Of a DNA stretch of 64,000 bases, positions 15,114 through 64,000 are shown piece by piece. The translations under genes and the position numbers were made by a program. Source of the stretch: Gammaproteobacteria bacterium (GTDB taxonomy: Bacteria; Pseudomonadota; Gammaproteobacteria; Ga0077554; Ga007554); NCBI GenBank assembly GCA_033717875.1, contig JADDKJ010000015.1, positions 285 through 64,284 on the forward strand, given 5' to 3'. Numbering within the stretch: the first letter of the stretch is position 1; the number at the start of each line of letters is the position of its first letter. The notes under the pieces were generated by a model. That model searched no databases. It had not been told where the DNA came from and saw only the letters and a list, made by a program, of their open reading frames with translations.

Positions 15114-15243
15114 GACGGATTCCTGTTCGAGCCGGATAAACTCCATTCTATTGTAGCGGGCTCTTCGTTGAAAAGGGAGGGGTGTCTTTGGCGCTGCAAC
15201 TCATTGAACCTAAAAACGGTGGTTGGAGCCTACTGCGAATGCC

Positions 15244-46581: not shown

Positions 46582-48720
46582 TCAGAACGTGCGCGCATAG
46601 CTCAGCGTGTAGGTGCGCCCGCGGCCGGCGAAGTAGTCGCTGTTCGTCCCGGCGGGATTGGCTTCCGTGTTATAGAGGATGTACTGCTTGTCGAGCAGGT
46701 TCTCGATACCGAGCCCGAGATCGCCCCAGCGGGATTTGTAGGTCACGGCGAGATCGGCCACGGTATAACCGGAGAAGTTCTCCTCCAGGTTCGCCAGTCC
46801 AAGTCGGCGGCCTTCGTTGATGCGGCGCGCATAGTAACGCGATGCCTGCAAGCGCGCGGCGCCGCGTTCCGAGAACGCCCAGTTCGTACCCACCACAAGC
46901 TTGTCCGGGCCCTGCTCGCTCGAGCCGAGTGCCACGTCCAGCGGCTGACCCTCTGCGGTGGCGGTCTTGCCCCTTATCCACGAGTAAAGCCCGAACAGGC
47001 TCCAGTCCTTGGCGAATTTCCAGTCGCCGTTCAGCTCCCAACCCTTGATGTTGACCGGCAGGCGTTCCAACCGCGAGACGCCGTCCACGACGCGGATCGT
47101 GCTGCCGAGATCGGAGGACGATTCGTAATAGGAAAGACCGGCAGCGCCGCGCGTGCCGCGCCAAGCGAGCCCGACTTCTTTGTTGTCGGTCAAGACCGGT
47201 TGCAGGTTGATCAGGTTTTCCACCGATTGGCCGTTGGTATTGACGCCGCGCAGTACTCTACCCACGTTCGGCAAGCCGAAGCCTTCGTTATACGATGCAA
47301 ACGTCGACCAGCCGGCACCGAGCCGCCAGATGGCGCCGAGGTTGAGAACGGTTTCGGCGAATTTGACCGTGCCGCCCTGCACCTCGCGGTTGCCAGAGGA
47401 AGCGAGCGTCCGATAGGTATCGACGTCCAGTTGTACATACTCGCGCCGCGCGCCGCCGCGCACCGTGAACGGTCCGCGCTCGTATTCGAGCTGGGCGAAC
47501 GGCGCGAGGTTGTTGAGCTTGATCGGCGGCACCCACGTGCGGTTGGTGAGCGCCAGGCGCTGCTCCGACACGTCGCGCAGGTAATCGAGGCCGACCGACA
47601 GCTCGAGGCCGCGCATGAAGAGATCGGGCCGCAACCACGATGTGCGCACGCCCCATTTGTCGGCAACGATGTCGGACTGGTCCATGAGCGTGCCCGCCGG
47701 CGCGATCGCGGGGTCTTGGAAGGTGCGGCTGTTCGTGGCGCCAAACAGGGCGGCGAAGTCCTGTTTGTAGATCTGCACGGACGCAAGCCCGCCACCGAGA
47801 TCGCTGTGGTACCAATCGATACTCGCGGTCTGCACGCGGTTGCGCGGCGGATTGCCGGGCGGCGTGCCGCGTTCGGAGGTTGTGGGGATGCCGGCGGCGC
47901 GGTTGCCCGGGACCACGCGATAATCGCCGTCGCCTTCGAGCTTAAAGCGGTTGAACGAGAACTGCCAGCGCTGCGGCCCGAGATTAGCGCCGGCCTTCAA
48001 AAATACATCGTCCGCGGTCGAGTCCATGGTGTTGCCTTGGACCGTGTCCGTGCCGATGCGGCGGCCATCGCCGTCGTAGGCGATGCCGCGCTGCGTCACG
48101 CCGACGTAGCCCAGCACATCGAAGCGCGCGTTCTTGTGCGCCACGCGATAGCCGGTCTTCCAACCGAGACTGTCGTCTTTGAACTGGGTCATGACTTTGG
48201 CGTCAAGGCGCTGCTCGGTGCCCATCTTTCTCGGCGTCTTCGAAATGTAGTTAATGATGCCGCCGGTGGCGCCCAGGCCGTAGATCGCCGACGGGCCGCT
48301 CACCACCTCGATGCGCTCGATGATGGCGGGATCGGCGAAGTAGCCCTCGCGCCGGCCGTCGACCACCGGGGTCGATTGCGGGATGCCGTCGAGCAGGATC
48401 AGCGCCCTGCGCCCGCGCAGGGTCTCGCCGGCGATCGAGAGCGTCTGGCGCGAGGGCGAATAGCCGGGCACGAAGGTGGTGAGCGCCTGCGACGGGTCCT
48501 CGGCGATCAGCAACTGCGGCGCCAGTTCCTGCTCCGTGATCACCGTCACCGCGCCGGGGATTTTCTCCAGGGCCTTTTCGCTGCGGGTCGCCGTGACGAC
48601 TACTTTGTCCAACTTCGTTTCAGCGTTCGGTGCAGGCGTATCCTTGGCGGCTTCGGCCGCGCCGGCGACGGCGTAGACAAGCGTCAGCGCGAGCCGTTTA
48701 ATGCGAATGCGATGTTGCAT
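46582..48720 (-). CDS. TonB-dependent siderophore receptor (IutA-like, no N-terminal signalling extension)
   Basis: AGGAG RBS, signal peptide, TonB box VVVTATR, LRGR..LILLDGIPQ, IERIEVVSG.SAIYG.GATGGIIN, NLLDKQY, terminal F. Confidence 0.95.
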   Translation of the reverse strand: MQHRIRIKRLALTLVYAVAGAAEAAKDTPAPNAETKLDKVVVTATRSEKALEKIPGAVTVITEQELAPQLLIAEDPSQALTTFVPGYSPSRQTLSIAGETLRGRRALILLDGIPQSTPVVDGRREGYFADPAIIERIEVVSGPSAIYGLGATGGIINYISKTPRKMGTEQRLDAKVMTQFKDDSLGWKTGYRVAHKNARFDVLGYVGVTQRGIAYDGDGRRIGTDTVQGNTMDSTADDVFLKAGANLGPQRWQFSFNRFKLEGDGDYRVVPGNRAAGIPTTSERGTPPGNPPRNRVQTASIDWYHSDLGGGLASVQIYKQDFAALFGATNSRTFQDPAIAPAGTLMDQSDIVADKWGVRTSWLRPDLFMRGLELSVGLDYLRDVSEQRLALTNRTWVPPIKLNNLAPFAQLEYERGPFTVRGGARREYVQLDVDTYRTLASSGNREVQGGTVKFAETVLNLGAIWRLGAGWSTFASYNEGFGLPNVGRVLRGVNTNGQSVENLINLQPVLTDNKEVGLAWRGTRGAAGLSYYESSSDLGSTIRVVDGVSRLERLPVNIKGWELNGDWKFAKDWSLFGLYSWIRGKTATAEGQPLDVALGSSEQGPDKLVVGTNWAFSERGAARLQASRYYARRINEGRRLGLANLEENFSGYTVADLAVTYKSRWGDLGLGIENLLDKQYILYNTEANPAGTNSDYFAGRGRTYTLSYARTF

Positions 48721-48854
48721 GATTGCTCCTCGTAACGTACGACTTGGTTTTTGGCTGGCTAGGCGATGACACATCACATTGGCTGGCTGGTATGAATTCA
48801 CTTTTATCGCGGCGTAGCGCGTCACGGCTACGGCCTTTCCGGTTTCCTCCCCCC

Positions 48855-49073
48855 TTACCGGCATTTCATCGAGTCCGTGATTGCGGGTTCCAGTGTGCTT
48901 CGTTTCTGTTGCTCCTCCCGTTGTAAATCCCTTGCCCGCTGACCCAATTCCAGAGCCAGTTGCGGATTGAGAATGAATACCCCGTCATCGTCGCCCACCA
49001 CCAAATCGGCCGGCTGTACGCTGACGCCGCCCACACTGACGGGCGTATTGACTTCGCCTTCCAGATTGCTCCT
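48855..49073 (-). pseudogene. C-terminal fragment of a second RraA-family gene
   Basis: NLEGEVNTPVSVGGVSVQPADLVVGDDDGVFIL aligns with NLGGEVNIPVSVGGVCVHPGDLVVGDDDGLFIL of the intact gene at 49706-50311. Confidence 0.85.
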
Positions 49074-49275: not shown

Positions 49276-49317
49276 GAGAATGGTTATTATTATCTTCAAA
49301 CTGTGCAATGATGTCTA
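49276..49317 (-). promoter_or_regulatory. Fur box overlapping a sigma70 promoter
   Basis: Minus strand GATAATAATAACCATTCTC (49294-49276) matches the Fur consensus at 16/19. TAGACA-N17-GATAAT at 49317-49289. Confidence 0.8.
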
Positions 49318-49705: not shown

Positions 49706-50311
49706 TTAAGCCGCACTCAATTTGCTCCGCTGCTGTTGATCCTCACGTTGCTTATCGCTTGCCAGTTGACCTAATTCCATGGCTTGTTGCGGAGTCAGGA
49801 TGAACAGGCCGTCATCATCTCCCACCACCAAATCACCAGGATGAACACAAACGCCGCCCACGCTCACAGGGATGTTGACCTCACCGCCCAGATTGAGGGA
49901 GCGCGTGGTCAAGGCGCTGATCGACTTGGAGAATACGGGAAAGCCCAACTCCGTTACGGCTCGAACGTCGGTGACGCCGCCTGAAATCACCACACCAGAG
50001 AGCTTTTTGGTCAGTGCGGCGCGTGTACGTAGTTCGCCCCAGCAGGCTCGCTGATCGTCCCCCGGCATCTCGATAACCAGCACATCTTGCGGCTGGCTCA
50101 ATAACAACGCCTGTCGGATCACGCTGCCATCCGTATTGGGAATCCGGACCGTGACGGCATTCCCCAAGACGCGTATGGGCCGGAATAGCGGTTGCAGCCC
50201 GCGCACGAAACCAAAATCGGTGAGATGCCCGATGGTGGAAGCGTTTATGTCATGATACAGATCGAGTAGCGCCGGTATGACGCCCTGAATCCTGGGTTTA
50301 ACATGATGCAT
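49706..50311 (-). CDS. RraA/HMG-aldolase (MenG-like) family protein
   Basis: GNAVTVR, DVLVI, ACWGEL, GVVISG.VTD, VGG..V.PGDLVVGDDDG. Confidence 0.9.
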   Translation of the reverse strand: MHHVKPRIQGVIPALLDLYHDINASTIGHLTDFGFVRGLQPLFRPIRVLGNAVTVRIPNTDGSVIRQALLLSQPQDVLVIEMPGDDQRACWGELRTRAALTKKLSGVVISGGVTDVRAVTELGFPVFSKSISALTTRSLNLGGEVNIPVSVGGVCVHPGDLVVGDDDGLFILTPQQAMELGQLASDKQREDQQQRSKLSAA

Positions 50312-50327
50312 GGTCGACCGTTCTTGG

Positions 50328-51107
50328 TTACCTACGATTCAATGGACAAGTTGAGCAGTATTCCTGTGGCTCGGTAGCTTTGTAGTAATAGCAACACGTC
50401 TGGCGGACACGAATAGGCTGCGTCGAATGAGGGGTGCGCTGTTTGTGCCAGAAGAATTTTGCAAGCGGGTTCTCGACTGCGCCAAACATCTCAGGCCCGG
50501 CATCCCTGACCAAGTAAGTGAAGTCTTCCCGAATCCGGCCTTGGGCATAGGTGCAGCTGTTTTCCATCATGCGACGTTCGTAGAGCGAATACACACGAAC
50601 CGCCGTGTTTTCCCATAGAACAGGAAGCGGAACTTTCGCCACGCTTGACAGGGACTGCCAAAGCCGGGACAAATTGTCGGAAAAAATGCTGACGATTATT
50701 TTGCGCCGCCATTCGGCTCGCAAGTCCATCGGCGGGAGGGTAGCCGTCAGGCTTTCAAGCGGCATACCGGATTGCCAGCGTTTGTTCGCGTAGTGATATT
50801 CCAAAAAACAATTCTCCAAAGACAAGTCTAATCCCTTGTCGTACATGCTCATGGCATACAAGCTGGGCGCTGCAGTTAAAAAAGCGATCCTCTTGCTTAG
50901 CAGCGAGGCCGTGATTCTTCTCGATGGGGAGCCAATCGCCGCTGTTAGAGAATCAAGCAGATCCGCACACTTTTGCGGAACAAGCAGGTCGATGGCGCGA
51001 ATCGAATGCTCTCGATTTCGGGCGTCGCCTTTCTTCAACAGAAACTGCGAGCTCAATACTTCCCATTCCGCCTGATCGAGCGATACCACGGTCATTACTC
51101 CTAACAT
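50328..51107 (-). CDS. FhuF-like ferric-siderophore reductase (2Fe-2S)
   Basis: LWEN motif and C-terminal RQTCC-x10-CxxCP. Confidence 0.88.
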   Translation of the reverse strand: MLGVMTVVSLDQAEWEVLSSQFLLKKGDARNREHSIRAIDLLVPQKCADLLDSLTAAIGSPSRRITASLLSKRIAFLTAAPSLYAMSMYDKGLDLSLENCFLEYHYANKRWQSGMPLESLTATLPPMDLRAEWRRKIIVSIFSDNLSRLWQSLSSVAKVPLPVLWENTAVRVYSLYERRMMENSCTYAQGRIREDFTYLVRDAGPEMFGAVENPLAKFFWHKQRTPHSTQPIRVRQTCCYYYKATEPQEYCSTCPLNRR

Positions 51108-51117
51108 GCGCCTATGT

Positions 51118-53091
51118 CTAACCAGGAACGGCGCAGGCGCTTTTCTGCTGTTCGGCGAGCTTCTGCGTTTTTGCCGTCGGATGGCCCAGGTGCTGAAAAG
51201 GATTTTGAGTCTGGCTCTTTCCGAACGGCATGCTCCCGGGCCCGCCTGCCCGCTCTATCATCGGCTGGACCAACAACTTTAGCGGCCAACTGCAGTCATG
51301 AAACAGACGTTCTTGAAGCAGCTTGCGAGTGTCCTCGGAGAACTCCACCCGGTCGATGACCTGCTCCAGGACTTGACGTAGGGCTGACCATAGTTTTGGC
51401 TCGGCGATGCCGTATCGAATGACCAAGGCCTCAATAATGGCGCGCAGATTGACTTGAATACCCAGGGTCTGCAGATAAAACAACAGCTCATCGGGCGTCT
51501 CGTGGTACAAGGTATTCGAATGTCCTGGCTTGAGTTGGTATTCCGGATCCGCCAGGCCATGATGAATTAACCACGGGACATGCAGGCGCAAGGAATCGTG
51601 ATCGCGCAGCAGCAAGCCGGATGCTTGTCCGTTGCGCCATACCAGCACGGCGTTCTGGCCATGCACTTCTGCCAGCATGCCAAGGCGGAACATACGTAAA
51701 TTGATATCGATGAAGGTCTGGCAGATCTCTTTAAAAAGCATCAGCACCGAGGCTGGATCCGGCGCAAGCTGCCTATAGTGCAACCATTCATCGAAGAAGT
51801 GTCGTTCGTGGTCCGGCAGCAGGGCGCCCAGTGCCGCCATCGGAATCAGCCGGTAGTTCGGATCCTGCATCAGCGGTGCCGGATAGCTACGCACCATGGC
51901 GGACAGGTGCCTCGGCGCCTCGTCGAACAGGCTTCCATTCTCGGGCATATAGGCCCACCACTTGGTTTCATTGCAGATGAATACCCTTTGCGCCAGTATG
52001 CTGTCCAAAGCCAGAGCCTCATGCAAAAGCTTTTCGCTGCGCTGTCCATTGATCATCTTAATCGCTGGCAGATAGCGGGAAGCGCCCAGGGAATATATCC
52101 CCAAAGGCAATTTCAAGTGATGGCGGCTGTCTGTCGTTGGCGCCAGGGAGCGGACCGAAGACGTAGGTAGAAAGCTTCCTTGCTGAAAGTTCAAGAGCAC
52201 GCACACACCGAACTGCAACTCGGCAGCAAGCTGTTTGGGCAGAACATGGCGCAATTGCCAAGGATGTACTGGCAATGCAATATGGCTCTGATCAATCCCG
52301 CGCTGCTGCATTTCCTGTCGCAGTGCCGCCTGCTGCGCGTTCGTCAACAAGAATTGCGCCGGCTGGGTCTGGTTCGGGTCAGCGACGCCTAAACCAAAAT
52401 CAAGATATTTTGTATTGATGGCCATCCAGTTCACCTGAATATCCTGCCCGAACTCGGCCATGTACTGTTGATAATCTTGTTTCGTAAATCCTCTTTTGAC
52501 CTTGGCGACCGGATGAAACGGGCGGTCCCTAAGCGAACTGCATTGTTCCAGCGTCTGAAAAAAATCTGCCTGGGTTCTGGAAAGCAGGCGTTCCATATCG
52601 ACGTTATGGGCCAGTGACCAAGCTGTTTGCTGCACCGCGTCTCTGACCCATTCCAAAAATAAGGCGGCACCTTCCTTGTTCTTACCAAGCGGACTATCAG
52701 CCAAATTCGCGATTACCAGTTCCATGAAACTGACCGCATCCAGTCGAGACAGCTGCAAGGCGTTTTGACCGGATTCCAGCTTAACGGCATAAACCGGAGT
52801 GTTCCGGATTTTCTGGATGGGCTGGACAATACCGCGCACCACGGGCACCAACACACAAAAGAGCGGAGCCTTGGATATCGACCATTGCCATATCAGGCCG
52901 TGCGCCGGCAGTTCGGGAAACTGAATCTGTTCTGAAAGCCCTGCGCATGGACCGCAGAAGGCTCGCAACTGCTCAAGCGAGATCAGTTCCTGCTCTGTGC
53001 CATCGAAAAACTTTTCCACAAGCAAGCAGTCAACCAAATCCTGCAATACCAGTTCGGAGGCCTGTTGTTGAAAGCGCTCATTTGTTGTCAC
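51118..53091 (-). CDS. acsA: NIS siderophore synthetase, AcsA-like (type B)
   Basis: LQDLVDCLL.E.FF, DRPFHPVAK, PVHPWQ, PTSSVRSL, EVHGQN, LRDHD. Follows acsB. Confidence 0.8.
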   Translation of the reverse strand: MTTNERFQQQASELVLQDLVDCLLVEKFFDGTEQELISLEQLRAFCGPCAGLSEQIQFPELPAHGLIWQWSISKAPLFCVLVPVVRGIVQPIQKIRNTPVYAVKLESGQNALQLSRLDAVSFMELVIANLADSPLGKNKEGAALFLEWVRDAVQQTAWSLAHNVDMERLLSRTQADFFQTLEQCSSLRDRPFHPVAKVKRGFTKQDYQQYMAEFGQDIQVNWMAINTKYLDFGLGVADPNQTQPAQFLLTNAQQAALRQEMQQRGIDQSHIALPVHPWQLRHVLPKQLAAELQFGVCVLLNFQQGSFLPTSSVRSLAPTTDSRHHLKLPLGIYSLGASRYLPAIKMINGQRSEKLLHEALALDSILAQRVFICNETKWWAYMPENGSLFDEAPRHLSAMVRSYPAPLMQDPNYRLIPMAALGALLPDHERHFFDEWLHYRQLAPDPASVLMLFKEICQTFIDINLRMFRLGMLAEVHGQNAVLVWRNGQASGLLLRDHDSLRLHVPWLIHHGLADPEYQLKPGHSNTLYHETPDELLFYLQTLGIQVNLRAIIEALVIRYGIAEPKLWSALRQVLEQVIDRVEFSEDTRKLLQERLFHDCSWPLKLLVQPMIERAGGPGSMPFGKSQTQNPFQHLGHPTAKTQKLAEQQKSACAVPG

Positions 53092-53869
53092 GTGATATTC
53101 CTTCGGAAAAAGAAATGGAGTTTAGTTTTGTCTGCAATGCCCGGAAGGCGATGCCGCGCTCATCACCCAGCACAAAGGTACAGACACCCTTGGCGCTCCA
53201 GGCTTCGTAATCGCCTTCGGCTCTGGGAATGGCGCAGTACGGTACGCCGACCTGGTCGCATGCCTGATGAATCCGCTGGAGTGCCTGCTGTACCGGTTCG
53301 GCCGCGATTTGCCAGGGGAAACCGCAGGATTGGGATAAATCCGCTGCGCCCTCCAGCACCAGGTCCACACCGGGCACCGACAGAATGTCGGCGATGCGTT
53401 CGACGCCGGCCAAGCTCTCGATCATGGGCACAACCATGATTTCATTGTTGGCCTTCGCTATATATTCAGCTAGGCCGTGCTTGCCAAACGAACCGGGACG
53501 GCCGCCGTTCAAGCTGCGCGATCCCACCGGATAGTATTTGCAGCCCGCGATAATGCGCTGCATCTCATCGGCGTTCTCCACCCTGGGCACGACGATGCCT
53601 TGTGCGCCGCCGTCCAGCGCCCGGAGAATTTCCTTGAGGCTGATGTCCGACACACGCACTAACGGCGTGAGGCCGACCGCCTCGGCCGCCCGGATCATGT
53701 TCTCCAGTGTTTCTGGGTTCACCATGACATGTTCCGTATCGATGATCACGAAATCGAAACCTGCCTCGCCGATCAGCTCGACCGCTACCGGCGACGGGAT
53801 AGAACAAAACAGGCCGAACGCCGACTGCTTCCGGCGCAGTTTTTGTTTAAGCAGGTTGGGCCTTAACAC
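53078..53869 (-). CDS. acsB: HpcH/HpaI aldolase-citrate lyase family (AcsB/SbnG-like)
   Basis: GFDFVIIDTEH, LDGGAQGIVVP, MIES..GV, EGAADLS. GTG start at 53869. Confidence 0.82.
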   Translation of the reverse strand: MLRPNLLKQKLRRKQSAFGLFCSIPSPVAVELIGEAGFDFVIIDTEHVMVNPETLENMIRAAEAVGLTPLVRVSDISLKEILRALDGGAQGIVVPRVENADEMQRIIAGCKYYPVGSRSLNGGRPGSFGKHGLAEYIAKANNEIMVVPMIESLAGVERIADILSVPGVDLVLEGAADLSQSCGFPWQIAAEPVQQALQRIHQACDQVGVPYCAIPRAEGDYEAWSAKGVCTFVLGDERGIAFRALQTKLNSISFSEGISRDNK

Positions 53870-55737
53870 GATGACAACCTGAATGCGTGCAATGGATTGG
53901 GAACCTTTTTGAATCGCGGCTCGCTGTCGCCCAGGAGCCGCCGCTTGGTCAACTCTTCGACTTGAAAGGTTTGCGCGAACACATCGAACGCTTTGAAACG
54001 TGCTTCGTGTTGCGGATGCCTCATTTGGTACTCCCGTATCACCGTCGCCGTCATGGACCAGAATTCCTTTTCCGGTAACTCGTAGTGCTGAGCGAGGAAG
54101 ATCGCCAGCTCGCCCAGACAGATAAAAAAGAATGAATCGCAGGAAAAATCCCTGACGGCATCCAGATCGTCGGTGAGGATGAAGGAGTTGCGATTGATAC
54201 GTGCGTGGCTGGCGGGCACCGGAACCAACTCGGGACAATGTTCCGGATACGCCAAGTGCCGTGGGGAGAAGCGCACGCCATCGTGAAAGTCCTTCAACGC
54301 GATGCGTACCGGCCAACCGTCCTTGTGGATCAGCATAATATTCTGTGCATGTGATTCCATGCCGATGCCGTGCCCAAACAGCATGTGAATGATCGGGCTT
54401 GCCGTCACGTGAAGCAGCTGTTCTGTCCACGCGCGCAAGCCGTGCTGCCGCATCCACGTATCGATCAGTGGGCGGCCATCGTCTTCCACATGGCAGAGTC
54501 CATTGAACGGCGCCGCGGATTCTCCTTGACGCAAATAGCGGTGCAGGCTTTCGCGCCAAATCGCGCCCAGCGTTCCGTACGCCTTCAACTTTCGGTTTTC
54601 CGGCATGGAGCCATAGTCGTAGCTCACCCCCAGCACCTCGCCAAGAATGACGAAATCGAGCTCTTTGGCATACGAATCCCATTCGATCAAACCTTGCAGC
54701 CAGTCCGTGACGATGGGGCCGTTCATCACGGTGTGCGCGGCCAGAATCCGGCTACTGGATGTGTTGGTGATGCTCAGCGATAGCTTGATGTAAGCCTTTT
54801 GCTTGGCGCTGTAGTTAGCCAGCGTGCGAATCGATTGTTGCGCCCGATAATTGTCCTGCCCGGCTCCCAGCCAAACGATGTCCTGTTTGACCAGTTCAGG
54901 ATGAAAGAGGGGGATGATCCGCTCTTGCCACTGCCATGGATGTACCGGCATCAGCCAATAATCGTCGATATTCTTGTTTTGCTGCTGTAGAACGGAAGCA
55001 AAGCACCGGTAATCCGGATCGCCCAACTCTTGCTCAATGAATGTCCGGTAGTCGATCCTCGCCGAATGGTTCATGCGGCTGTTCATTTTATGAACAGCAA
55101 TCCAATTCACCTGAAGTAGTTGTTTGAACTCCGGCCCATAGAGTCGGTTGTCGTTCAGGGTAAAACCGATGCGGGACTTGTAGCAGGGATGATAGAGATG
55201 CGCATCCATGATGTCGCCTTCCAGCTCGTCATAGCCGCGCTGCGCCGCAGGCAGCCGAATGGGCCGGGGCTGGCTTTGCGCCTGCAGGTCCTTCAACAAG
55301 GTCTGTTCCAGCTCGTTCATGAAGGCCGTCAAGTGTTCGGCATGAGGAATCTGGCGAACGATTTCGGCGAAAACGTCTTGCAAGCTGGTCGGCCTTGGCT
55401 CGCTGTCACCGGATAACCGGACTATCGGTCCTTTGTCCAGCTTTGCCAGTCCAAAGCTGTCTTTGAACCGACCCGGACAATGATATCGAACGATTTGGCC
55501 GTCGGGTGTTTTACCTTCCAATAGAAACGCACATGCGCTATTGGACGCGGCGCCGTCGAGATATTCATAAGACAGGATATTTTCGTAAATGAGCGCCTGA
55601 ATCAATTGCCTGACGACACGCTGCTCCACCTCTGCATAATAATGCTTCGATTGCAGGACGTTGATCCAGCTCGCGTCTGGATCGTTTTCATCGTTTCGGA
55701 TTTGGTTCCCGATTTCCTTGGCTTCCAGAATGTTCAT
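53863..55737 (-). CDS. acsC: NIS siderophore synthetase, AcsC-like (type C)
   Basis: RVVRQL.QALIYE, HLYHPCYKSRIGF, PVHPWQW, AQQSIRTL, ESHAQN, KDFHDG. Confidence 0.82.
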   Translation of the reverse strand: MNILEAKEIGNQIRNDENDPDASWINVLQSKHYYAEVEQRVVRQLIQALIYENILSYEYLDGAASNSACAFLLEGKTPDGQIVRYHCPGRFKDSFGLAKLDKGPIVRLSGDSEPRPTSLQDVFAEIVRQIPHAEHLTAFMNELEQTLLKDLQAQSQPRPIRLPAAQRGYDELEGDIMDAHLYHPCYKSRIGFTLNDNRLYGPEFKQLLQVNWIAVHKMNSRMNHSARIDYRTFIEQELGDPDYRCFASVLQQQNKNIDDYWLMPVHPWQWQERIIPLFHPELVKQDIVWLGAGQDNYRAQQSIRTLANYSAKQKAYIKLSLSITNTSSSRILAAHTVMNGPIVTDWLQGLIEWDSYAKELDFVILGEVLGVSYDYGSMPENRKLKAYGTLGAIWRESLHRYLRQGESAAPFNGLCHVEDDGRPLIDTWMRQHGLRAWTEQLLHVTASPIIHMLFGHGIGMESHAQNIMLIHKDGWPVRIALKDFHDGVRFSPRHLAYPEHCPELVPVPASHARINRNSFILTDDLDAVRDFSCDSFFFICLGELAIFLAQHYELPEKEFWSMTATVIREYQMRHPQHEARFKAFDVFAQTFQVEELTKRRLLGDSEPRFKKVPNPLHAFRLSSC

Positions 55738-55770
55738 GTTCGTACCTTTATTTAAACCTTATTTAAATTG

Positions 55771-57207
55771 TCAGAAGGAACCCGCCGCAGCTTGTTGCTG
55801 CTTGGCGTACTGGTCGGTCTTGGGCAGCAACAGCGCCAGTGGCAGGGTTAAAAGAATCAGCAGGCCAATGGCGACGAATATCTCGTTGATGGCGGTAACG
55901 CTTGCGCTTGCAGACGCCAAGCCGTCACTCATCAATTGCGTGCGGCGCATTTCGAAATAAATGGATACCAGCACGATCGCCACCGAGGCCGTTACCCTTC
56001 TGAGAATATTGTTCATGGCCGAGCCTTCGGTAACGAGATGCTCGGGGATGGCATTGAGGCCAGCGGTTGTGACGGGAATATAAGACAGCCCCAGACCAAT
56101 GCCGCGCGCCATCATCAAGGCAAAAATCAACCATAGGGAGGAATGTTCGTTGATGAAGCCGAAGGCCATGGTCGATACGGCGCTCAATATAAGCCCCGTC
56201 GTCACCACCCCCCGGGGTCCTTTCGCATCCAGAAGCGTCCCGCCAAGACTCGCGAACGCGCTGGCGCATACCGCCGTGGCGAACAAGGCCAGACCGGTCC
56301 AGATCGCGCCATATCCCAGCACTGTCTGCATCAACAACGGCAGCAGCACAATGCTGCCGAACATACCGATCGATTGCGCGACTACCACCACCACGCTCAG
56401 GCAGTAACTGCCGATGGCAAAAATACGAAGGCTCAACAAGGGGTGCGATTTGCCCAACTCCACTCTGACAAATAGCGTGAGACACAATAGCGCCGCGATA
56501 AGCAAGGAAATATTCAATGGATCCGTGAGCGCGGCTTGGTCCGTCAGCCGGCTCAGCGTGACCAGCAAGACCCCGATTCCCAGCGTAACCAATACAAATC
56601 CTTGCCAATCGAATCTCTGCGGCGTGCGCTCCGAAGACGCGGGCAGGCAGTAAATCCCGATCATTCCTCCAATAACGCCAGTGGGAATGTTCATCACAAA
56701 CAGGGCACGCCAGTCGAAGAACTGGAGTAACAAGCCGCCCACGACGGGGCCCACGGCCGGCGCGAGCATTACCGCCATGCCCCACAGGCCTGTGATCTTG
56801 CCTCGTTGATCCTTGGGGTAGACCTCGAAGATCAGCGCGAGCGACAGCGGAATCATCAGGCCGCTGGCCACGCCCTGAATACTTCTCGCGGCGATCACCC
56901 ACGGCATGGACGTCGCCAGCGCGCCGATACAAGATCCCCCAATAAACAAAGCCAGTCCGGATAAATACACTGTTTTCTTGCCGAATTTATGACTTAGAAA
57001 TGCAGTGGCCGGCATCGTCATGCCCATGCTGATCATGAATCCGGTGATGATCCAGCTCGCCGCCACTGCGCCTATACCGAACGCGTCCATGAATTCGGGA
57101 ATGGCCGGGTTCAGCGCAGTGTTGTTGAGACTGACCGTGAGGGTTCCGAGCAGTACGGTGAAAACGATTAGCCACCGTGGGGCTAGCCTCGATGACAATG
57201 GACTCAT
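55771..57207 (-). CDS. DHA2 (EmrB/QacA) MFS exporter, YhcA-like siderophore efflux
   Basis: About 14 hydrophobic segments, APAVGPVVGG, WRALF..NIP, FDWQG. Confidence 0.9.
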   Translation of the reverse strand: MSPLSSRLAPRWLIVFTVLLGTLTVSLNNTALNPAIPEFMDAFGIGAVAASWIITGFMISMGMTMPATAFLSHKFGKKTVYLSGLALFIGGSCIGALATSMPWVIAARSIQGVASGLMIPLSLALIFEVYPKDQRGKITGLWGMAVMLAPAVGPVVGGLLLQFFDWRALFVMNIPTGVIGGMIGIYCLPASSERTPQRFDWQGFVLVTLGIGVLLVTLSRLTDQAALTDPLNISLLIAALLCLTLFVRVELGKSHPLLSLRIFAIGSYCLSVVVVVAQSIGMFGSIVLLPLLMQTVLGYGAIWTGLALFATAVCASAFASLGGTLLDAKGPRGVVTTGLILSAVSTMAFGFINEHSSLWLIFALMMARGIGLGLSYIPVTTAGLNAIPEHLVTEGSAMNNILRRVTASVAIVLVSIYFEMRRTQLMSDGLASASASVTAINEIFVAIGLLILLTLPLALLLPKTDQYAKQQQAAAGSF

Positions 57208-58586
57208 GCTATTGCGCTTATTCCCTGTGGTGTTCTGCAAGCTTCACGCACGGCTTCCGAGAAGATTTGCGCGATACAGTCCATCTGAGTTTCCGTGACA
57301 ATCAGCGGAGGCAGGAATCTGACCACGGAGGAATGTCTGCCGCCCAACTCAAGGATCAGTCCTTTCTGAAAACATTTACGCTGAATCAAGGCCGCCAGTT
57401 CCGGATTCGCCAAGGGCTGGCCCAGTGAGTCGGTCTTACCTTGCCCATGAACGACCTCGACGCCGATCATCAGCCCCAGCCCGCGTACATCGCCGATTTC
57501 GCTTACGTCATGCTTGAGCGCGATCAGCCGTTGCATCAGTTGCCGACCGCGAAGCGACGCCTGCTCCGGAATATTCTGACTCCTGATGAACTTCAGGCTC
57601 GCCAGTCCTGCCGCCATCGCCAGTTGATTTCCGCGAAAAGTGCCAGTGTGAGCGCCAGGTTTCCAGTGATCGAATTGCTTCCGGTAGACCAGCACGGACA
57701 GGGGCAGGCTGCCGCCAATCGCTTTCGACAACACAAGAATGTCCGGCACGATGCCGGCGTGTTCGAAAGCGAACAGCTTTCCCGTTCTGCCGAACCCAGT
57801 CTGTACCTCGTCGAGAATCAAGAGGATGCCGTACTCTTCGGTAATGCTGCGTATTTCACGCAGCCACTCGACTGGCGCTGGAATAGCGCCGCCTTCTCCC
57901 TGCACCGCTTCCAGTACCATGGCCGCGGGGAGTCGCACGCCGCTTTCAGGATCGCTCAGAATACTTCGTATATAGCGGGCGCTGAGTCGGTGGCATTGCT
58001 CTCCACCCACTCCGAACGGACAACGGTACGAATAGGGATACGGAAGAAAATGCACATCTGGCATCAGTCCTTGGATCTCGCCTTTTTGGTGGAGCGTTCC
58101 GCTCAGACTCATCGTGGCATGCGTTGAGCCATGATAGCCACCGTGAAAGGCGAACACCCCGCTTCGGCCGGTGACCGTCTTGGCGAGCTTGACCGCCGCT
58201 TCAACCGCATCGGCGCCCGTCGGAGCACAAAAATGAATGTGGGCGTTTCTCGAAAATTCCTCCGGCAGACTGGCAAAGAGCTCGTCGACAAACGCTTCCT
58301 TCAGCGGCGTCGTAATGTCCAGCGTATGCAATGGCACGTTTTGGTCGAGCGTGGATTTGATTGCATCGATCACCACGGGGTGATTGTGCCCCAACGCCAA
58401 TGTTCCGGCGCCTGCAAGGCAATCGTAATAGGTCTTGCCATCCATGTCCGTGACATAAATGCCTTCCGCTTTTTTGATCGCCAGCGGCAAGCGTCGGGGA
58501 TAGGATCGAGCGTTGGACTCGCGTGCCGCCTGACTCTCAAGAAGAGACTGGTTCTCGCTACGTTCAATGACAAGTGTTTGCAGCAT
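57204..58586 (-). CDS. acsF: Diaminobutyrate-2-oxoglutarate aminotransferase (AcsF-like)
   Basis: ESNARSYPR, DCLAGAGTLALGHN, EAVQGEGG, DEVQTG.GRTG, LSKAIGG, HTGTFRGN. Confidence 0.88.
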   Translation of the reverse strand: MLQTLVIERSENQSLLESQAARESNARSYPRRLPLAIKKAEGIYVTDMDGKTYYDCLAGAGTLALGHNHPVVIDAIKSTLDQNVPLHTLDITTPLKEAFVDELFASLPEEFSRNAHIHFCAPTGADAVEAAVKLAKTVTGRSGVFAFHGGYHGSTHATMSLSGTLHQKGEIQGLMPDVHFLPYPYSYRCPFGVGGEQCHRLSARYIRSILSDPESGVRLPAAMVLEAVQGEGGAIPAPVEWLREIRSITEEYGILLILDEVQTGFGRTGKLFAFEHAGIVPDILVLSKAIGGSLPLSVLVYRKQFDHWKPGAHTGTFRGNQLAMAAGLASLKFIRSQNIPEQASLRGRQLMQRLIALKHDVSEIGDVRGLGLMIGVEVVHGQGKTDSLGQPLANPELAALIQRKCFQKGLILELGGRHSSVVRFLPPLIVTETQMDCIAQIFSEAVREACRTPQGISAIA

Positions 58587-58591
58587 GACAA

Positions 58592-59833
58592 TTACTCCAT
58601 TGCATTTGTGCGTTTTGATGGGTCCGCTTCGATAAACACCTGATGCGGGCGTGGATGACAAAGAAAGTCGGCATGCGAGATGTTGTAGCCATAGGCGCCA
58701 GCCAGCGGCAATACCAGCAGGTCACCGACCTTGGCGTCTGACAGGACAACGTTGCGGGCAAGCACATCCTTGGGCGTGCAGAGTTGACCGACGACGGTCA
58801 GCGAGCGGGTCGTCTCAGCCGGGCTCTCGCCTGTTCGACGCAGTGGAATATGAATCACCGGATGGTCGTGGGCTTGCGCTGCCGGCAACCGGAATTGATG
58901 GGTACCGCCCCGGCATACCGCGAAACCCTGACCGTGGTTTTGCTTCATATCCAGCACCTGCATCAGGTAGTAACCGCAGAACGCGGTGACAAAGCGACCA
59001 GGCTCGAAACGCACAATCGGCGGATGCTGACAGTGTTTTAGCCGTTTTCCCAAATGCCGGCACAAGCTCGGCCAGTCGAACTGCTCCGACCGCAGATAAT
59101 TCACGCCCATGCCGCCGCCCACATTGAGGTAACGGACTGTTTGCTTATTTGAGGCCAGCGATTTCCAGGAAGGCCATTTATCCAGATACCAATCCAGCAA
59201 TTGCTGATGGCGCTCGACCTGAAGCTGATGAGACATCGCATGAATATGGAAACCGCTCAGAACCAGGCTATCGCTTTGCTCGACCAGCGCCACCGCCTGC
59301 TCCAGTTGCTGCTCGTCGATTCCAAAGGGTGTCGGCGCACCCGCCATCGACAACTTGGTAGTGAGGTGGTCCGGCAACACCGGGTTGATGCGAATCAACA
59401 CCGGTTGCCGGCGATTCAATCTCGTGGCAATCGTGTTCAAGCGGTATATCTCGCCCAGACTTTCCAGATGAATCATCTCCACCCCTTGCGTCAGCGCGTG
59501 ATACAGATCCGAATCCAACTTTCCGGGGCCGGAGAAAATAAAATTGCGGTGCGTTGAGCAATTCAACACGCGCTGGATTTCACCGCCGGAAGAAATTTCG
59601 AAACCATCGACCCAAGGTGCGAGCGTTTCCAAGATTTCCGGCTCACTGTTGGCCTTGATGGCGTAGTACAGTTCAACCCCTTCCGGCAGAAACGACTTGA
59701 GCCATTGTGCGTGGCTCCGAAGCGCGTTGAGGTCATAGACGAAGGCCGATACTGGATCCGAATGCTCATCTGCCAGCGCTCTTGCCTGATCTACGACGAT
59801 TGCCGGCAAGCGGTTCGTCAACCGGGGCATCAT
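58592..59833 (-). CDS. acsE: PLP-dependent Orn/DAP/Arg-type decarboxylase (AcsE/PvsE-like)
   Basis: YAIKAN, SGPGK, NVGGG.G, FEPGRF, GQLCTPKD, AGAYG..ISH..FL.H. Confidence 0.85.
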   Translation of the reverse strand: MMPRLTNRLPAIVVDQARALADEHSDPVSAFVYDLNALRSHAQWLKSFLPEGVELYYAIKANSEPEILETLAPWVDGFEISSGGEIQRVLNCSTHRNFIFSGPGKLDSDLYHALTQGVEMIHLESLGEIYRLNTIATRLNRRQPVLIRINPVLPDHLTTKLSMAGAPTPFGIDEQQLEQAVALVEQSDSLVLSGFHIHAMSHQLQVERHQQLLDWYLDKWPSWKSLASNKQTVRYLNVGGGMGVNYLRSEQFDWPSLCRHLGKRLKHCQHPPIVRFEPGRFVTAFCGYYLMQVLDMKQNHGQGFAVCRGGTHQFRLPAAQAHDHPVIHIPLRRTGESPAETTRSLTVVGQLCTPKDVLARNVVLSDAKVGDLLVLPLAGAYGYNISHADFLCHPRPHQVFIEADPSKRTNAME

Positions 59834-61608
59834 AGTGATACCTCCTTCCATGGCGAACGAAGCTGGACATAGCTGGCGAATTTGTCGGCCTCTGCTGCCA
59901 GTCTGATCTTGAAATTGGTTTTACAGGGAATGGTCCCGCCGCGAAGCAGATCGTCCAGTTCCGGTGCTGGAGACTGCAGCGCTGAGCGGATTTCCTGAAG
60001 CTCTTGATGCACCAACTGCCACATGGCCGGCGCAATCTGGGGCTGACCATGCGTCAGCGCCAAGATTGCCTCGGAAAGATTATTAACCAGCAGGCAATAG
60101 GCGATGCGGCTCCAACCCTGTGATCGTGAGTATTCCAATGCTTGTTTTACCCGTGCGGGTGTCTCCTCTGGAATCCATTGTATGCCGCGGTCGGCGGTCA
60201 GCTTCACACCTTCATAATCGCGCAGCAACAACTTGACAGCTTGTCCATTCCGGTGCACCAGCACCGTATTTTGCAAGTGCGGCTCGAACACCACCCCGTG
60301 ATTGAAAAACATGCTCAATACCGGGCGTAGCAACAACGCTGCATAGCGCTGAAACCACTGCAACAGATCATCTACGGCCGGAACCCTGTCCAAGTGCCGC
60401 GCAAGAAAAGGCAGGATATTGGGTAATAGGGACAAGTCCCGACCAAACAGCGTACCAGCCATCAGGCAATCGTTCGCGCCTTCGGCCAGACAGAAATTGC
60501 GTCGCAGGATCGCGCCGGTTTGTTCCCGGAACCAAATCCTGTCATCATCGGAATGATCGGACGGGGACCAGCTGATCGCCGCCGGTTCGGCAACGGTTTG
60601 CAACCCTCCTGTGGAATCGGCATGCGCTTCGATTAAATGCTGAAGGAGGCGATCGATGATCAGGGCGCTTTCCAACTCGTACCAGGCGTTCTTGCGCACA
60701 CAATTGGTGATACGTATGTTCAGCGAGCCTTTGATAAAGTAATCATGTCCCTCTACATAAAGCGTTCGCACCGAAGCGGTGGGAAACGCCCGGAAACCGG
60801 TTTCCCCCAAATCCCGAATACGACCCCCATCCAGCACGCGCTGAACCCGCCAATCCGCTCGGAAAAGCTCCGCCTGAATCGGGTGCATGCTGATGATCGC
60901 GTTTCCCGGCCGCGCGCTGGATTGATTAGCGAATCCGGTTAGCACTTGTTGCTCGGAGAGGCTGTTGGCGCCGATCCATAGTTCATCGAGCGGCACCTCG
61001 AACAAGTGCAGCCGCAATGACACACCAAACTCGGGGGAAAAATCCTCCTGTCGAAGCGACAGTGGCCACAGCCTTGCTTTCGGTGCCGCTTGCGTCGGAT
61101 GCCCAAACCAGAGACATTGTTCACTGCTCAGATAATTGGCAAGCGGCTGTGTCGTCTCGTCCGCGAAATTCGCCACAATGGCTCGCTTCAGATCGCGGCT
61201 GGCGAGAATTTGTGTCAGCAGTTCCGGATTGCGCTTTTGCATCACGGCAGAGCAGCTATCCACCATGTATTCGGCCAATAAGCCCGCATCGAGGCGCTGC
61301 CAGCGTCCGCGATTACGCTTGCCGAAAACGTCCGACAAGTAGTATTGGCTGCCCAATGCATCCTGCCGGTCGACCAGCACCAGGAATCGGGTGCCATCCG
61401 GCATTTGAACCATCAACGGCATCGCCTGCCGAGACCGAACCCGACGATATAGCTGGAAAGGCAAACTCAAGGGCTCCTTGCGCCAGTCGTCGTTCAGCAG
61501 CGACAGCGGCAGTGCAAATTCCTTGATCAGACAATTGAGCAGCGAGTGACAAGCCGCCTGGTCACCAATGACCTGGGAATAGGACGCGCAGGACGGATGA
61601 TGGCTCAT
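59830..61608 (-). CDS. acsD: NIS siderophore synthetase, AcsD/PvsD-like (type A)
   Basis: LLNCLIKEFA, EQ.LWFGHP, PTASVRT, RITNCVRKN, EPHLQN, RDYEG. Confidence 0.85.
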   Translation of the reverse strand: MSHHPSCASYSQVIGDQAACHSLLNCLIKEFALPLSLLNDDWRKEPLSLPFQLYRRVRSRQAMPLMVQMPDGTRFLVLVDRQDALGSQYYLSDVFGKRNRGRWQRLDAGLLAEYMVDSCSAVMQKRNPELLTQILASRDLKRAIVANFADETTQPLANYLSSEQCLWFGHPTQAAPKARLWPLSLRQEDFSPEFGVSLRLHLFEVPLDELWIGANSLSEQQVLTGFANQSSARPGNAIISMHPIQAELFRADWRVQRVLDGGRIRDLGETGFRAFPTASVRTLYVEGHDYFIKGSLNIRITNCVRKNAWYELESALIIDRLLQHLIEAHADSTGGLQTVAEPAAISWSPSDHSDDDRIWFREQTGAILRRNFCLAEGANDCLMAGTLFGRDLSLLPNILPFLARHLDRVPAVDDLLQWFQRYAALLLRPVLSMFFNHGVVFEPHLQNTVLVHRNGQAVKLLLRDYEGVKLTADRGIQWIPEETPARVKQALEYSRSQGWSRIAYCLLVNNLSEAILALTHGQPQIAPAMWQLVHQELQEIRSALQSPAPELDDLLRGGTIPCKTNFKIRLAAEADKFASYVQLRSPWKEVSL

Positions 61609-62573
61609 ACCGCGGCTTCTAGAACGGGATGGACAAGCGTCATACCGGCTTCAAGGCGATGCAGCGGTTTGACCGGAATGCCCAGACAAATCTTGGTCGT
61701 TTCTCTGAACAAGCCACCACCAAGTTGCGCATTCACGGCAAATTCGGATTCATCATCATGAAGGCCGTTATGAATTTCCCTTATCCGTATCCCTTTATCG
61801 GTTACTGCATATTCCACATGATGGCGGCCCAACCCGAGATCGAGCTCTGAAACCAGCGCAAGCAGTTCGTCGCAACGAGGCGGCCGCTGCATGAAAGACT
61901 GAATTAGTTTCGTGCGGTACTTGTCATCGTTGAACTGAATGTGGCTACCACAGAGGACGACAAAACCGTCCGGCGTGCCAAGGCCATCCAGTGCATACAC
62001 CTCTCCCTCCTGATGTTTTTCGACGAGAGCATAGCCATCGCGTATTTCTGCCAACCGATGTTTCAGATCCGCAGGATTCCCAACGATTGATCCGCCGGTT
62101 GCTATATCGGTTTCGAGTGGCTGCACCGTAACAGGAAACACTCCGGCATCGATGTCTACCCCTGGTTCGGAACAATTCATGACCCATCGGTAACGCGGCG
62201 AGGGTTCCAGCTCAAAACGATTGCGAAGGGCAAATCTCTGATCACACAGAACGGCACTACGCCATGATGACCCGGGCAGCCTCAAATAATCCGCCATCAA
62301 GGCTGCACAGACCTGCAAGCTGGCGTCCGTAGCAATCACCCCGGAAAATTTCAGGTCCTGCACGGATAGGAGACGAGCGACAGAAAGCGGATTGAAGATG
62401 TCACACTCGAGCAATTTGCATTGGCGGTATACGGATGACTCTTTCGCCCGCAAGAGATGCTCTCTGGCACAATCCGTCAGAATAGTTATCCTTAACTTGA
62501 GATCGGTAGCCGCCGGAATGAATCCTTCTTCCAGGAATCGGGTTGGCACATGAGAGAGTAACAATAATTCCAT
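61605..62573 (-). CDS. Divergent PvsA-like ATP-grasp-fold protein
   Basis: N-terminus LLLSHVP....EGFIPAA..L...ILTD resembles the vibrioferrin ligase PvsA as I recall it. CDIFNP, E....G..Y..D, G..HVEY....GIRI.EI. Confidence 0.65.
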   Translation of the reverse strand: MELLLLSHVPTRFLEEGFIPAATDLKLRITILTDCAREHLLRAKESSVYRQCKLLECDIFNPLSVARLLSVQDLKFSGVIATDASLQVCAALMADYLRLPGSSWRSAVLCDQRFALRNRFELEPSPRYRWVMNCSEPGVDIDAGVFPVTVQPLETDIATGGSIVGNPADLKHRLAEIRDGYALVEKHQEGEVYALDGLGTPDGFVVLCGSHIQFNDDKYRTKLIQSFMQRPPRCDELLALVSELDLGLGRHHVEYAVTDKGIRIREIHNGLHDDESEFAVNAQLGGGLFRETTKICLGIPVKPLHRLEAGMTLVHPVLEAAV

Positions 62574-62645
62574 CTAACATCTTCCTCGCGTCAATGAATT
62601 CCACGCGTCAATGAATAAACAACAATTCATACCAGTTACGGATAA

Positions 62646-62667
62646 CCGGAACGATTCTCATTTACTA
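62646..62667 (-). promoter_or_regulatory. Probable Fur box of the siderophore operon
   Basis: Minus strand TAAATGAGAATCGTTCC, about 80 bp upstream of the first gene. Confidence 0.65.
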
Positions 62668-62743: not shown

Positions 62744-64000
62744 GGGCACTTCTATAAATTCCCCAATGCCGCTACGCTTCTGCCATGCAAACGAGCCTCT
62801 TTGATCTTGAGAACCGCTACGCCAGCCTGAGTGCTGCGGGCGATCCGCTGGAGCGGCTTGATGCCGTCCTTGACTGGGAAATCTTCCGCCCCATCCTTGA
62901 GCGGATTGATCTGAAGGAGCGCAAGAACGCGGCTGGGCGCAAGCCCACCTGCCGCATTCTCATGTTCAAGCTACTCATCTTGCAGCGCCTGCACAACCTG
63001 TCCGACGAACGCCTGCAATACCAGGTCACGGATCGGCTGTCCTTCATGCGCTTCCTGGGTCTCGAACTCACCGGCGACGTGCCCGATGCCCGCACCGTCT
63101 GGGCCTTCCGCGAAGCACTCAAGGGGCACTGTCTGGTTGAGCCGCTGTTCGACCGCCTGAACCAGGCGCTGTCTGATCTTGGCGTCGAACTCAAGAGCGG
63201 GCAGATCATCGATGCCACCTTCGTTCCCGTGCCGATCCAGCGCAACGGACGCGAAGACAACGCCCTCATCAAGCAGGACGCTGTTCCGGTCGACTGGGGC
63301 AAGAGTCCCGCCAAACGGGCGCAGAAGGACATCGACGCGCGCTGGACGAAAAAAAGTGGCCAGAACCACTACGGCTACAAGAACCACATCAACGTGGACC
63401 GCGACACCAAGCTCATCGCGGCGCACGCCTGTACGCCTGCCCACATCCACGACAGCCAGACGCTCGAAGCCGTGCTGCGTCCGCAGGACGAAGGCGGCAA
63501 GGAGGTCTGGGCGGATAGCGCATACCGCTCGAACGAGCAGGAACAAAGCCTGGAAGACAGCGGGCACGAGAGCCGGATACACGAGCGCGCATACCGCAAC
63601 ACGCCGCTGACCGAGAAACAGGAAACGTCAAACACCGCCAAATCGCGGGTGCGCGCGCGGGTTGAGCATGTTTTTGCTGCACATGGAAAACAGTATGGGT
63701 GGCATCTTCCTCAACACCATCGGAGCGGCCCGCGCGGCGGTCGGCGTGGGGCTGATGAACCTGGCCTACAACCTCACCCGTATCGAGGTGCTGATTCGCA
63801 AGAAGGTGTTCGGCTTTGACAGGATAAGTGCGCCCGGAATACGGGGGGCGACATGAAAAACGGTCGAAATCCTGCCCCCGGCTATGTCGAGGGAGAAAAA
63901 AAGCGGACAACCCACAGAAAAAAACTCCACGAAATCCGAAAATCCGGAAAATGAAGCTCAGGGATGGAGTGCGGGGCTTCAGACCCTATTTATAGAAGTG
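62744..64000 (+). mobile_element. IS5-family insertion sequence (right IR cut by the window end)
   Basis: Left IR GGGCACTTCTATAAAT; right IR ATTTATAGAAGTG at 63988-64000. Confidence 0.9.
62785..63856 (+). pseudogene. IS5-family transposase with a +1 frameshift near 63678
   Basis: LSDE..E/Q...DRLSF.RFLG, IIDAT, YGYKNH, WADSAY, RARVEHVF. The tail HMENSMGG...NLAYNL is in another frame. Confidence 0.88.

Follow-up and report, generated by a model that had tools for sequence, protein, structure and literature searches.

The DNA described here is a stretch of 64,000 nucleotides (hereafter the window) from contig JADDKJ010000015.1 of a gammaproteobacterial genome assembly (GCA_033717875.1), and it carries a ten-gene siderophore operon headed by a gene designated X. 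It is probable that this is a complete operon of the achromobactin type, that is, one of the siderophore pathways independent of non-ribosomal peptide synthetases (NIS), which was acquired horizontally, in which X is a non-canonical accessory of the AcsD step and of which the product is achromobactin or a very close derivative. The core of the operon is ordinary, and what is new is X, its one unexplained conserved component.

The ten open reading frames (ORFs), identified from the ORF list and a reading of the sequence, are all encoded on the minus strand, between 62573 and 49706. They were all present in the order given by the initial annotation, from an ATP-grasp-like gene to an RraA gene. 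Pfam and NCBIfam put names on nine of the ten, gene 1 (X) having a match in neither. In the following list the identity to the counterpart on Sodalis glossinidius pSG1 closes the line where there is one.

61605..62573, minus strand: gene 1 (X), 322 aa, a divergent, C-terminally short homologue of the PvsA family of ATP-grasp proteins
59830..61608, minus strand: acsD, type A NIS synthetase (citrate and L-serine), Pfam IucA_IucC and FhuF; 53%
58592..59833, minus strand: acsE, pyridoxal phosphate (PLP)-dependent decarboxylase (type III), Pfam Orn_Arg_deC_N and Orn_DAP_Arg_deC; 58%
57204..58586, minus strand: acsF, diaminobutyrate-2-oxoglutarate transaminase, NF005393 at 754.7 bits (cut-off 671); 54%
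55771..57207, minus strand: yhcA-like DHA2 exporter of the major facilitator superfamily (MFS), TIGR00711 at 291.7 bits (cut-off 230.2); 54%
53863..55737, minus strand: acsC, type C NIS synthetase, IucA_IucC and FhuF domains, SbnF model at 579 bits (below the cut-off of 900); 56%
53078..53869, minus strand: acsB, HpcH/HpaI aldolase or citrate-lyase-like protein, PF03328, start GTG 53869; 63%
51118..53091, minus strand: acsA, type B NIS synthetase (2-oxoglutarate), IucA_IucC and FhuF domains, SbnC model at 400 bits (below the cut-off of 700); 49%
50328..51107, minus strand: FhuF-like protein with a C-terminal 2Fe-2S motif, PF06276 and PF11575 (FhuF and FhuF_C); 44%
49706..50311, minus strand: RraA-like protein (HMG/CHA aldolase / oxaloacetate decarboxylase family), PF03737; 51%

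The likely starts of acsE, acsF and the MFS gene lie inside their longest ORFs, at ATG 59833 for acsE (ATGA overlap with an AAGGAGG site ahead; longest ORF from 59851), at ATG 58586 for acsF (longest ORF from 58661) and at ATG 57207 for the MFS gene (ATGA overlap; longest ORF from 57240). The several ATGA overlaps described earlier were confirmed; there are three, read directly from the DNA at the X/acsD, acsD/acsE and acsF/MFS junctions. Overlaps with GTG starts join acsC to acsB (GTG 53869) and acsB to acsA (GTG 53091), and the remaining intergenic gaps in the operon measure 5–33 nt. The ten genes are tightly coupled.

Annotated reference clusters from Sodalis, Thalassospira and Vibrio were obtained by tblastn of AcsD against plasmids. 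Judged against these, genes 2 to 10 correspond one-to-one, as orthologues, to the classical achromobactin genes. The order on Sodalis glossinidius pSG1 is acsF, receptor, acsD, acsE, MFS, acsC, acsB, acsA, four genes for an ATP-binding cassette (ABC) importer, FhuF-like and RraA, with the FhuF-like protein annotated as 'IucA/IucC C-terminal-domain'. On a Thalassospira marina plasmid the order is acsD, acsE region, acsF, MFS, acsC, acsB, acsA, ABC importer, FhuF-like and RraA, where an unannotated gap behind acsD matches AcsE at 58% (tblastn). The FhuF-like protein of the window is 44–49% identical to the proteins at the same position in these two clusters. No NCBIfam Sbn model passed its cut-off among the operon proteins, the scores for SbnF and SbnC being those listed above.

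It had been proposed that in this operon a front end resembling pvsA-D-E is joined to a back end of acsF-C-B-A. The Vibrio reference plasmid carries pvsA-B-C-D-E, and AcsD and AcsE of the window are 32 and 45% identical to PvsD and PvsE, respectively. Because the identities to Sodalis are higher, the front end is to be read as AcsD/AcsE and not as PvsD/PvsE. On the question of whether the type A enzyme is nearer PvsD or AcsD, the answer is AcsD, and it matches the crystallised AcsD (PDB 2w02/3ffe) at 691 bits (E 1e-206), with residues 11–588 falling on 10–588 of 2w02. The FhuF-like and RraA-like genes, which had been taken for additions, are the usual last two genes in the Sodalis pSG1 and Thalassospira clusters, and the rearranged order, taken for a mark of chimerism, is found as D-E-F in Thalassospira without gene 1. 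What is left of the chimera is gene 1, a PvsA relative, while genes 2 to 10 belong to the achromobactin set.

It had further been suggested that a shared citryl-ethanolamine intermediate could feed two siderophores, one achromobactin-like and one vibrioferrin-like. The homology of the AcsD/AcsE and PvsD/PvsE pairs is in keeping with this, but the 3.19-Mb genome has exactly three IucA/IucC genes, all inside the operon and corresponding one-to-one to AcsD, AcsC and AcsA. There is no separate PvsB-type enzyme for a second branch, and residues conserved in PvsA are replaced in X, as set out below. With no enzyme set for a second product, this is the least probable of the explanations considered here.

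The ancestry of X was established through its family. X gave no Pfam match even at E ≤ 1 and no NCBIfam match, and phmmer with X alone against PDB sequences returned noise only (E 1.7); a profile of the X family reached ATP-grasp ligases among the PDB sequences at E 1.8e-05. A word-indexed search of 5.8 billion proteins with X produced 46 matches, 45 of which form a tight family with 44–99% identity and lengths of about 315–341 aa, apart from two of 406 aa and one fragment of 226 aa. The 46th is a 402-aa protein with ATP-grasp Pfam domains, 28% identical to X and 43% identical to Vibrio PvsA. An exhaustive profile search likewise returned the X family (four clusters at 50% identity) and then directly proteins of about 400 aa, among them P0050, annotated in Xanthomonas as 'siderophore biosynthesis protein PvsA'. 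X aligns with Vibrio PvsA over residues 3–304 at 22% identity (BLASTP E 2e-24; hhalign 99.9%, E 1.8e-36), and the two have in common the N-terminal and central ATP-grasp domains and the stretches ECD[IV]FNPL and GF[IV]P. The PvsA-like lead gene of the initial annotation is thus borne out by BLASTP, by hhalign and by Xanthomonas PvsA proteins among the nearest matches outside the family, and as a statement of ancestry drawn from sequence 'PvsA-like' is correct for X.

The structural model points the same way. The AF2 model of X, built on the family alignment, has a pLDDT of 85.2, and with Foldseek it matches an L-amino-acid ligase (E 1e-14). With VIA it reached Z 22.2 to 4dim (294 residues aligned), 21.4 to 3vot and 20.5 to YwfE/BacD, the fold matches from the two tools including L-amino-acid ligases, PurK and PurT. 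ESM Atlas features of X are consistent with ATP-grasp. By this modelling X is predicted to have the three-domain ATP-grasp fold.

Within that fold X departs from PvsA at positions that are otherwise nearly constant. Twenty seven X-family rows were compared with 27 PvsA-side rows, hand-chosen from the family and profile searches; the PvsA-side rows took in one protein, P0047, that was later placed inside the X clade. At the Lys of the V-x-K-P motif the X family has Q in 23 rows, G in two, and K and E in one each, and the PvsA side has K in 26 and R in one. At the Asn of E-x-N-x-R the X family shows H (24 rows), N (2) and Y (1), compared with N in 27/27 on the PvsA side, and the Arg of the same motif is G in 27/27 X-family rows, compared with R in 26 and G in one. 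In X of the window itself the three residues, conserved as K, N and R in PvsA, are Q151, H268 and G270. In a profile-to-PDB alignment its 'PatvQp' falls on 'PVIVKA' and 'PVVIKP' of solved ligases, which places the Lys site. We take the replaced Lys, Asn and Arg to be residues that bind the ATP phosphates and Mg and stabilise the acyl-phosphate in ATP-grasp enzymes. As these three residues conserved in PvsA are replaced, a PvsA-like ligation by X cannot be assumed.

X is also shorter. It ends at residue 322, about 80 aa short at the C-terminus of the PvsA-side proteins (387–414 aa), and Pfam LAL_C2 matches residues 325–401 of the Xanthomonas PvsA, the very stretch that is absent from X. Two PvsA proteins match Pfam ATP-grasp_4, for which X gives nothing at E ≤ 1. 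In turn the X family has a conserved His/Asp-rich pattern of its own (RHHVEY and HNGLHDDE). In a quick IQ-TREE analysis all X rows and P0047 formed one clade (SH-aLRT 100), whose stem measures 2.21 substitutions per site. X has branched off the PvsA family of ATP-grasp proteins and diverged fast. P0047, a metagenomic protein of 387 aa on a long branch within the X clade, has R at the Lys site, the stretches DINNGN and GRYCVEY, and has kept the C-terminal extension; it may represent an intermediate form between PvsA and X.

The loss of the canonical catalytic residues and of some 80 C-terminal residues, along with the long stem of the clade, could be expected of a decaying pvsA relic without present function. 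This explanation is very unlikely, since the dN/dS of X against its 82%-identical counterpart in genome G087, the closest relative, is 0.19, like that of the other nine operon genes (0.12–0.18). Intact frames are found in the 45 family members, mostly of 315–341 aa or longer, at identities as low as 44%, 23 columns of the family alignment are invariant, and the translational coupling of X to acsD is conserved. X is under purifying selection and is not decaying.

The operon form led by X is conserved. The order X-acsD-acsE-acsF-MFS-acsC is present in all eight of the genome loci with a gene related to X (one from Methyloversatilis, three from Duganella, one from Massilia, two from Pseudoduganella and one from Hahella), with acsB following in seven of the eight, Hahella being the exception, and acsA present in all six loci that extend that far. 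An RraA orthologue (65–82% identity) was detected in each of the five X-bearing genomes searched; in four of them it is the gene immediately behind acsA, and in Hahella it lies at a distance of about 10 kb downstream. Because an orthologue of the FhuF-like protein was found in only one of these five and in G087, it is not a fixed part of the X-type operon. In Hahella sp. CCB-MM4 (L007), where acsB is missing, a receptor gene immediately precedes X, and acsA is separated from the FhuF-like and RraA genes by other genes over about 9.5 kb.

An even sample of 201 genomes from the family of one Duganella genome was also searched. The same two genomes held both a true X, at 55 and 72% identity, and a true AcsD, at 68 and 83%. 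Seven others had a PvsA-like gene (27–28%) and a PvsD-like gene (34–36%), on one contig in six of them, and one further genome had a PvsD-like gene only. G087, one of the two genomes with true X, carries the whole X-D-E-F-MFS-C-B-A-FhuF-RraA-receptor-PepSY block with 82% nucleotide identity over 12.9 kb. In total the X-led order was found in at least nine other genomes. The initial annotation regarded the operon as a candidate for a new system provided that the order was not already characterised; the order does recur, and no published description of the X-led operon form or of X was found in a search that was thin on subscription journals and did not extend to supplementary files. The X-led operon is a conserved lineage variant and not a one-off chimera made on this element.

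By orthology with the known achromobactin pathway, AcsD would couple citrate to L-serine and AcsE would decarboxylate the product to O-citryl-ethanolamine. AcsF would supply 2,4-diaminobutyrate, which AcsC would attach, and AcsA would add two 2-oxoglutarates. Export of the product would fall to the MFS protein, and uptake and iron release to the TonB-dependent receptor, the PepSY_TM protein and the FhuF-like protein, in place of cbrABCD. X would act in this scheme as a selected, functional, non-canonical accessory of the AcsD step, possibly bound to AcsD, and not as an amino-acid ligase of the PvsA type. A complex prediction for X and AcsD gave an ipSAE of 0.39 (median of 0.31, 0.40, and 0.39), with 0.00 for the best of three controls. 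Agreement between the three runs extends to at least 74% of contacts, and the pLDDT of the partners is at least 82. Of 157 solved complexes 116 reached the ipSAE mark, as did 2 of 215 mismatched pairs, with 18 of the 157 solved complexes and both passing mismatches at 0.60 or below; the prediction was run on custom alignments, so that these calibration counts hold only roughly. The model weakly suggests a contact between X and AcsD.

A different role, in line with the main idea of the initial annotation, would be that of a catalytically active tailoring ligase whose active site is unconventional. X would then attach one more unit, perhaps an amino acid as has been proposed for PvsA in vibrioferrin, and the product would be a new achromobactin-vibrioferrin-like hybrid. 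X is homologous to PvsA over residues 3–304, is always the first gene of the operon (8/8 loci and G087), is under purifying selection and has kept acidic Mg-ligand positions, and the receptor is unlike classical Acr (40% identity), all of which count in favour of such a ligase. However, the K (26/27), N (27/27) and R (26/27) that are conserved on the PvsA side are replaced, and the C-terminal subdomain (LAL_C2 in the Xanthomonas PvsA) is gone. X is not accompanied by an extra NIS synthetase or a precursor-supply gene. The enzymatic role of PvsA itself is given as untested in the relevant passage of a review (PMC5577590). A tailoring ligase of this kind, the main alternative to the accessory role, is considered unlikely.

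Several observations weigh against an accessory role for X in an achromobactin pathway. The acidic positions are retained in X as they are on the PvsA side (Mg ligands E254 and E266 as E or D; hinge E185), one member of the family keeps the Lys at the V-x-K-P site, and by its sequence X may still bind a nucleotide. Purifying selection and the strict His/Asp/Glu pattern fit an active, remodelled enzyme equally well as a non-catalytic partner. By the calibration of the tool, a complex prediction such as that of X with AcsD would be wrong more often than right unless the guess was likely beforehand. Achromobactin as the product is predicted from gene content alone. The uptake side is non-classical, with no cbrABCD in the window and a receptor only 40% identical to that of Sodalis, and so divergent a receptor could hint at a modified ligand. 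In addition, two insertion sequence (IS) elements stand between the operon and its presumed regulator genes.

A bolder reading goes beyond an accessory role and is put forward only tentatively. In this reading X would be the first of a new functional class that arose from ATP-grasp ligases, a PvsA-type enzyme having lost its nucleotide-dependent chemistry and its C-terminal subdomain and gained a conserved His/Asp-rich site. Such a protein, working on or with the AcsD step, might serve as a pseudoenzyme subunit for channelling or protecting the labile O-citryl-serine/ethanolamine ester, or as a remodelled catalyst giving an undescribed achromobactin derivative in Burkholderiales and Hahella.

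The G+C content of the operon is about 55% compared with about 63% in the rest of the window, falling from about 64% to about 55% near 49100. No AcsD orthologue was found among 40 relatives of the host genome, where the only match was a 37%-identical NIS enzyme, and for this reason a horizontal origin is proposed. The operon appears to have been acquired as low-G+C cargo beside a trb/traG conjugation module. To its left the following features were identified, the RraA-like remnant lying directly upstream of the receptor gene at the boundary between 64 and 55% G+C.

49276..49294, minus strand: better Fur box, upstream of the receptor gene, 16/19 consensus positions
48855..49054, minus strand: remnant of a second RraA-like gene, C-terminal 62 codons, 73% identical to residues 140–201 of the operon RraA (E 6e-29)
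46582..48864, minus strand: TonB-dependent receptor, Acr-like, plug and beta-barrel domains, about 64% G+C, 40% identical to the receptor of the Sodalis cluster
46053-46598, minus strand: 181-aa protein, no Pfam match
44459-46042, minus strand: PepSY_TM protein (PF03929), forming with the 181-aa protein a putative periplasmic siderophore reductase module

The ORF called at 48866-49108 has no RraA similarity; the remnant lies in the adjoining frame 48855-49145. Between rraA and the Fur box, at 49315-49645, there are two perfect inverted-repeat pairs, one with 22-nt arms 124 nt apart and the other with 31-nt arms 105 nt apart. CTAG stands at the outer ends of each pair, and the neighbouring arms of the two pairs share four bases (49479-49482). 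The pairs may represent small mobile elements or recombination elements at this junction. The Fur box at 49276-49294 is the only match in the window with three or fewer mismatches to the Fur consensus (0 expected in shuffles). Since the RraA remnant, the repeat pairs and this Fur box sit at the G+C boundary, the present operon appears to have displaced the greater part of an earlier cluster of its own kind, richer in G+C, and to have left the uptake genes of that cluster in place.

Within the window, to which the search for cbr genes was confined, no ABC importer adjoins the operon, and the pair of PepSY_TM and 181-aa proteins may replace the cbrABCD importer. Behind the operon of G087 the PepSY protein is 79% identical, and the 181-aa protein is represented only by a 27-residue match. 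A correlation between X and PepSY-type uptake was considered and dropped, as a PepSY orthologue lies near the cluster in only one of five X-bearing genomes and in G087.

The receptor, 181-aa and PepSY_TM genes are followed leftward, still on the minus strand, by a LysR regulator, traG and trbB to trbI, and then on the plus strand by a tyrosine integrase (28681-29907) beside guaA, and guaB. The conjugation proteins identified, which comprise type IV secretion proteins and a coupling protein, are TrbI, TrbG, TrbF, TrbL, TrbE, TrbC, TrbB and TraG. The location on a conjugative element claimed at first is supported by this module beside the operon and by its integrase; no relaxase was seen in the window, and the contig, IS-rich in this part, stops at 65943, 1.9 kb past the window, before the far end of the element is reached. 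The operon is likely borne on an integrative and conjugative element. The layout of Tn4371-type elements was tried as a template and rejected as a misfit, because the integrase adjoins trbI.

The region ahead of X contains the following.

62647..62665, minus strand: weak Fur-like box upstream of X, 12/19 consensus positions
62785..63819, plus strand: IS5-family transposase, inserted upstream of the operon, NF033581 at 248 bits (cut-off 140), Pfam DDE_Tnp_1 and DUF772

The Fur-like box that had been proposed for the operon is present, though weak. In four of the eight related loci (L002, L003, L004, and L008) a near-identical motif, GTAAATGAGAATCATTCAG, which matches 13/19 positions, lies about 64 nt upstream of X. 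The Hahella locus has a 15/19 Fur-like site upstream of X, and the remaining three of the eight have nothing at 13/19 or better to the Fur consensus there. Directly upstream of the ribosome-binding site of X, at 62587..62616 on the minus strand, a sequence of 13 nt, ATTCATTGACGCG, is present in two copies spaced 17 nt apart and could serve as a regulator site or as a promoter element of the extracytoplasmic function (ECF) type.

A second IS element (DUF4372 and DDE_Tnp_1, apparently in two frames) is found in the contig tail, at about 64364-65411 of the contig (L015 80-1127), and beyond both elements there is a gene for a 73-aa DUF4880 protein of the FecR N-terminal type (L015 1278-1499). In G087 a DUF4880 gene and an ECF sigma factor gene lie directly upstream of X. 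From this arrangement, the operon in the window may have been cut off from sigma/anti-sigma control.

Two further loci of the window lie farther from the operon, both on the minus strand. At 54-10776 there is a two-partner secretion (TPS) pair, consisting of a 2985-aa TPS-domain/haemagglutinin-repeat protein and a ShlB/FhaC-type transporter. At 14074-16333 two adjoining ORFs for Slp-family lipoproteins, overlapping as called, lie beside a DDE_3 (IS630-type) transposase.

Achromobactin is a model NIS pathway, yet a conserved and selected extra gene heads its operon in a set of soil and water bacteria. Should X carry out a tailoring step, an unrecognised reaction and hence a new siderophore would be implied; should it be a partner protein, it would be the first pseudo-ATP-grasp partner of a NIS synthetase. 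The locus is also an example of a complete siderophore system as cargo beside conjugation genes, which has apparently overwritten an older copy of a similar cluster.

Among known systems, the vibrioferrin operon pvsABCDE and the xss/PvsA genes of Xanthomonas resemble the present operon in that a gene of the PvsA family comes first in a NIS operon, whereas the remainder here is of the acs and not of the pvs type. The staphyloferrin B system (SbnC, SbnE, SbnF, SbnG, and SbnH) likewise combines type A, B and C NIS synthetases with an HpcH-fold SbnG-like protein and a PLP decarboxylase, and differs in that the diamine is provided here by a diaminobutyrate transaminase and not by SbnA/SbnB.

The closest likeness is to the achromobactin cluster of Dickeya dadantii, Pseudomonas syringae and Sodalis pSG1, with nine non-transport genes at 44–63% identity to pSG1 and the same FhuF-like and RraA-like tail. 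In the P. syringae cluster table, Psyr_2594 is listed as 'hypothetical' and Psyr_2595 as 'menaquinone biosynthesis' (PMC3329529), and by position the FhuF-RraA tail would correspond to these two genes. The same source names acsD, acsE, acsC and acsA as the genes necessary for achromobactin and gives its [M-H]- as 590.14 (PMC3329529). P. syringae has AcsS, to which the ECF sigma factor and FecR-type gene upstream of X in G087 are comparable. The classical order is acsF-acr-acsD-acsE-yhcA-acsC-acsB-acsA-cbrABCD-fhuF-like-rraA-like. The operon of the window differs from it in the extra first gene X, in the move of acsF behind acsE, as in Thalassospira, where X is lacking, and in the receptor and PepSY_TM module that stand in the window in place of the cbrABCD importer.

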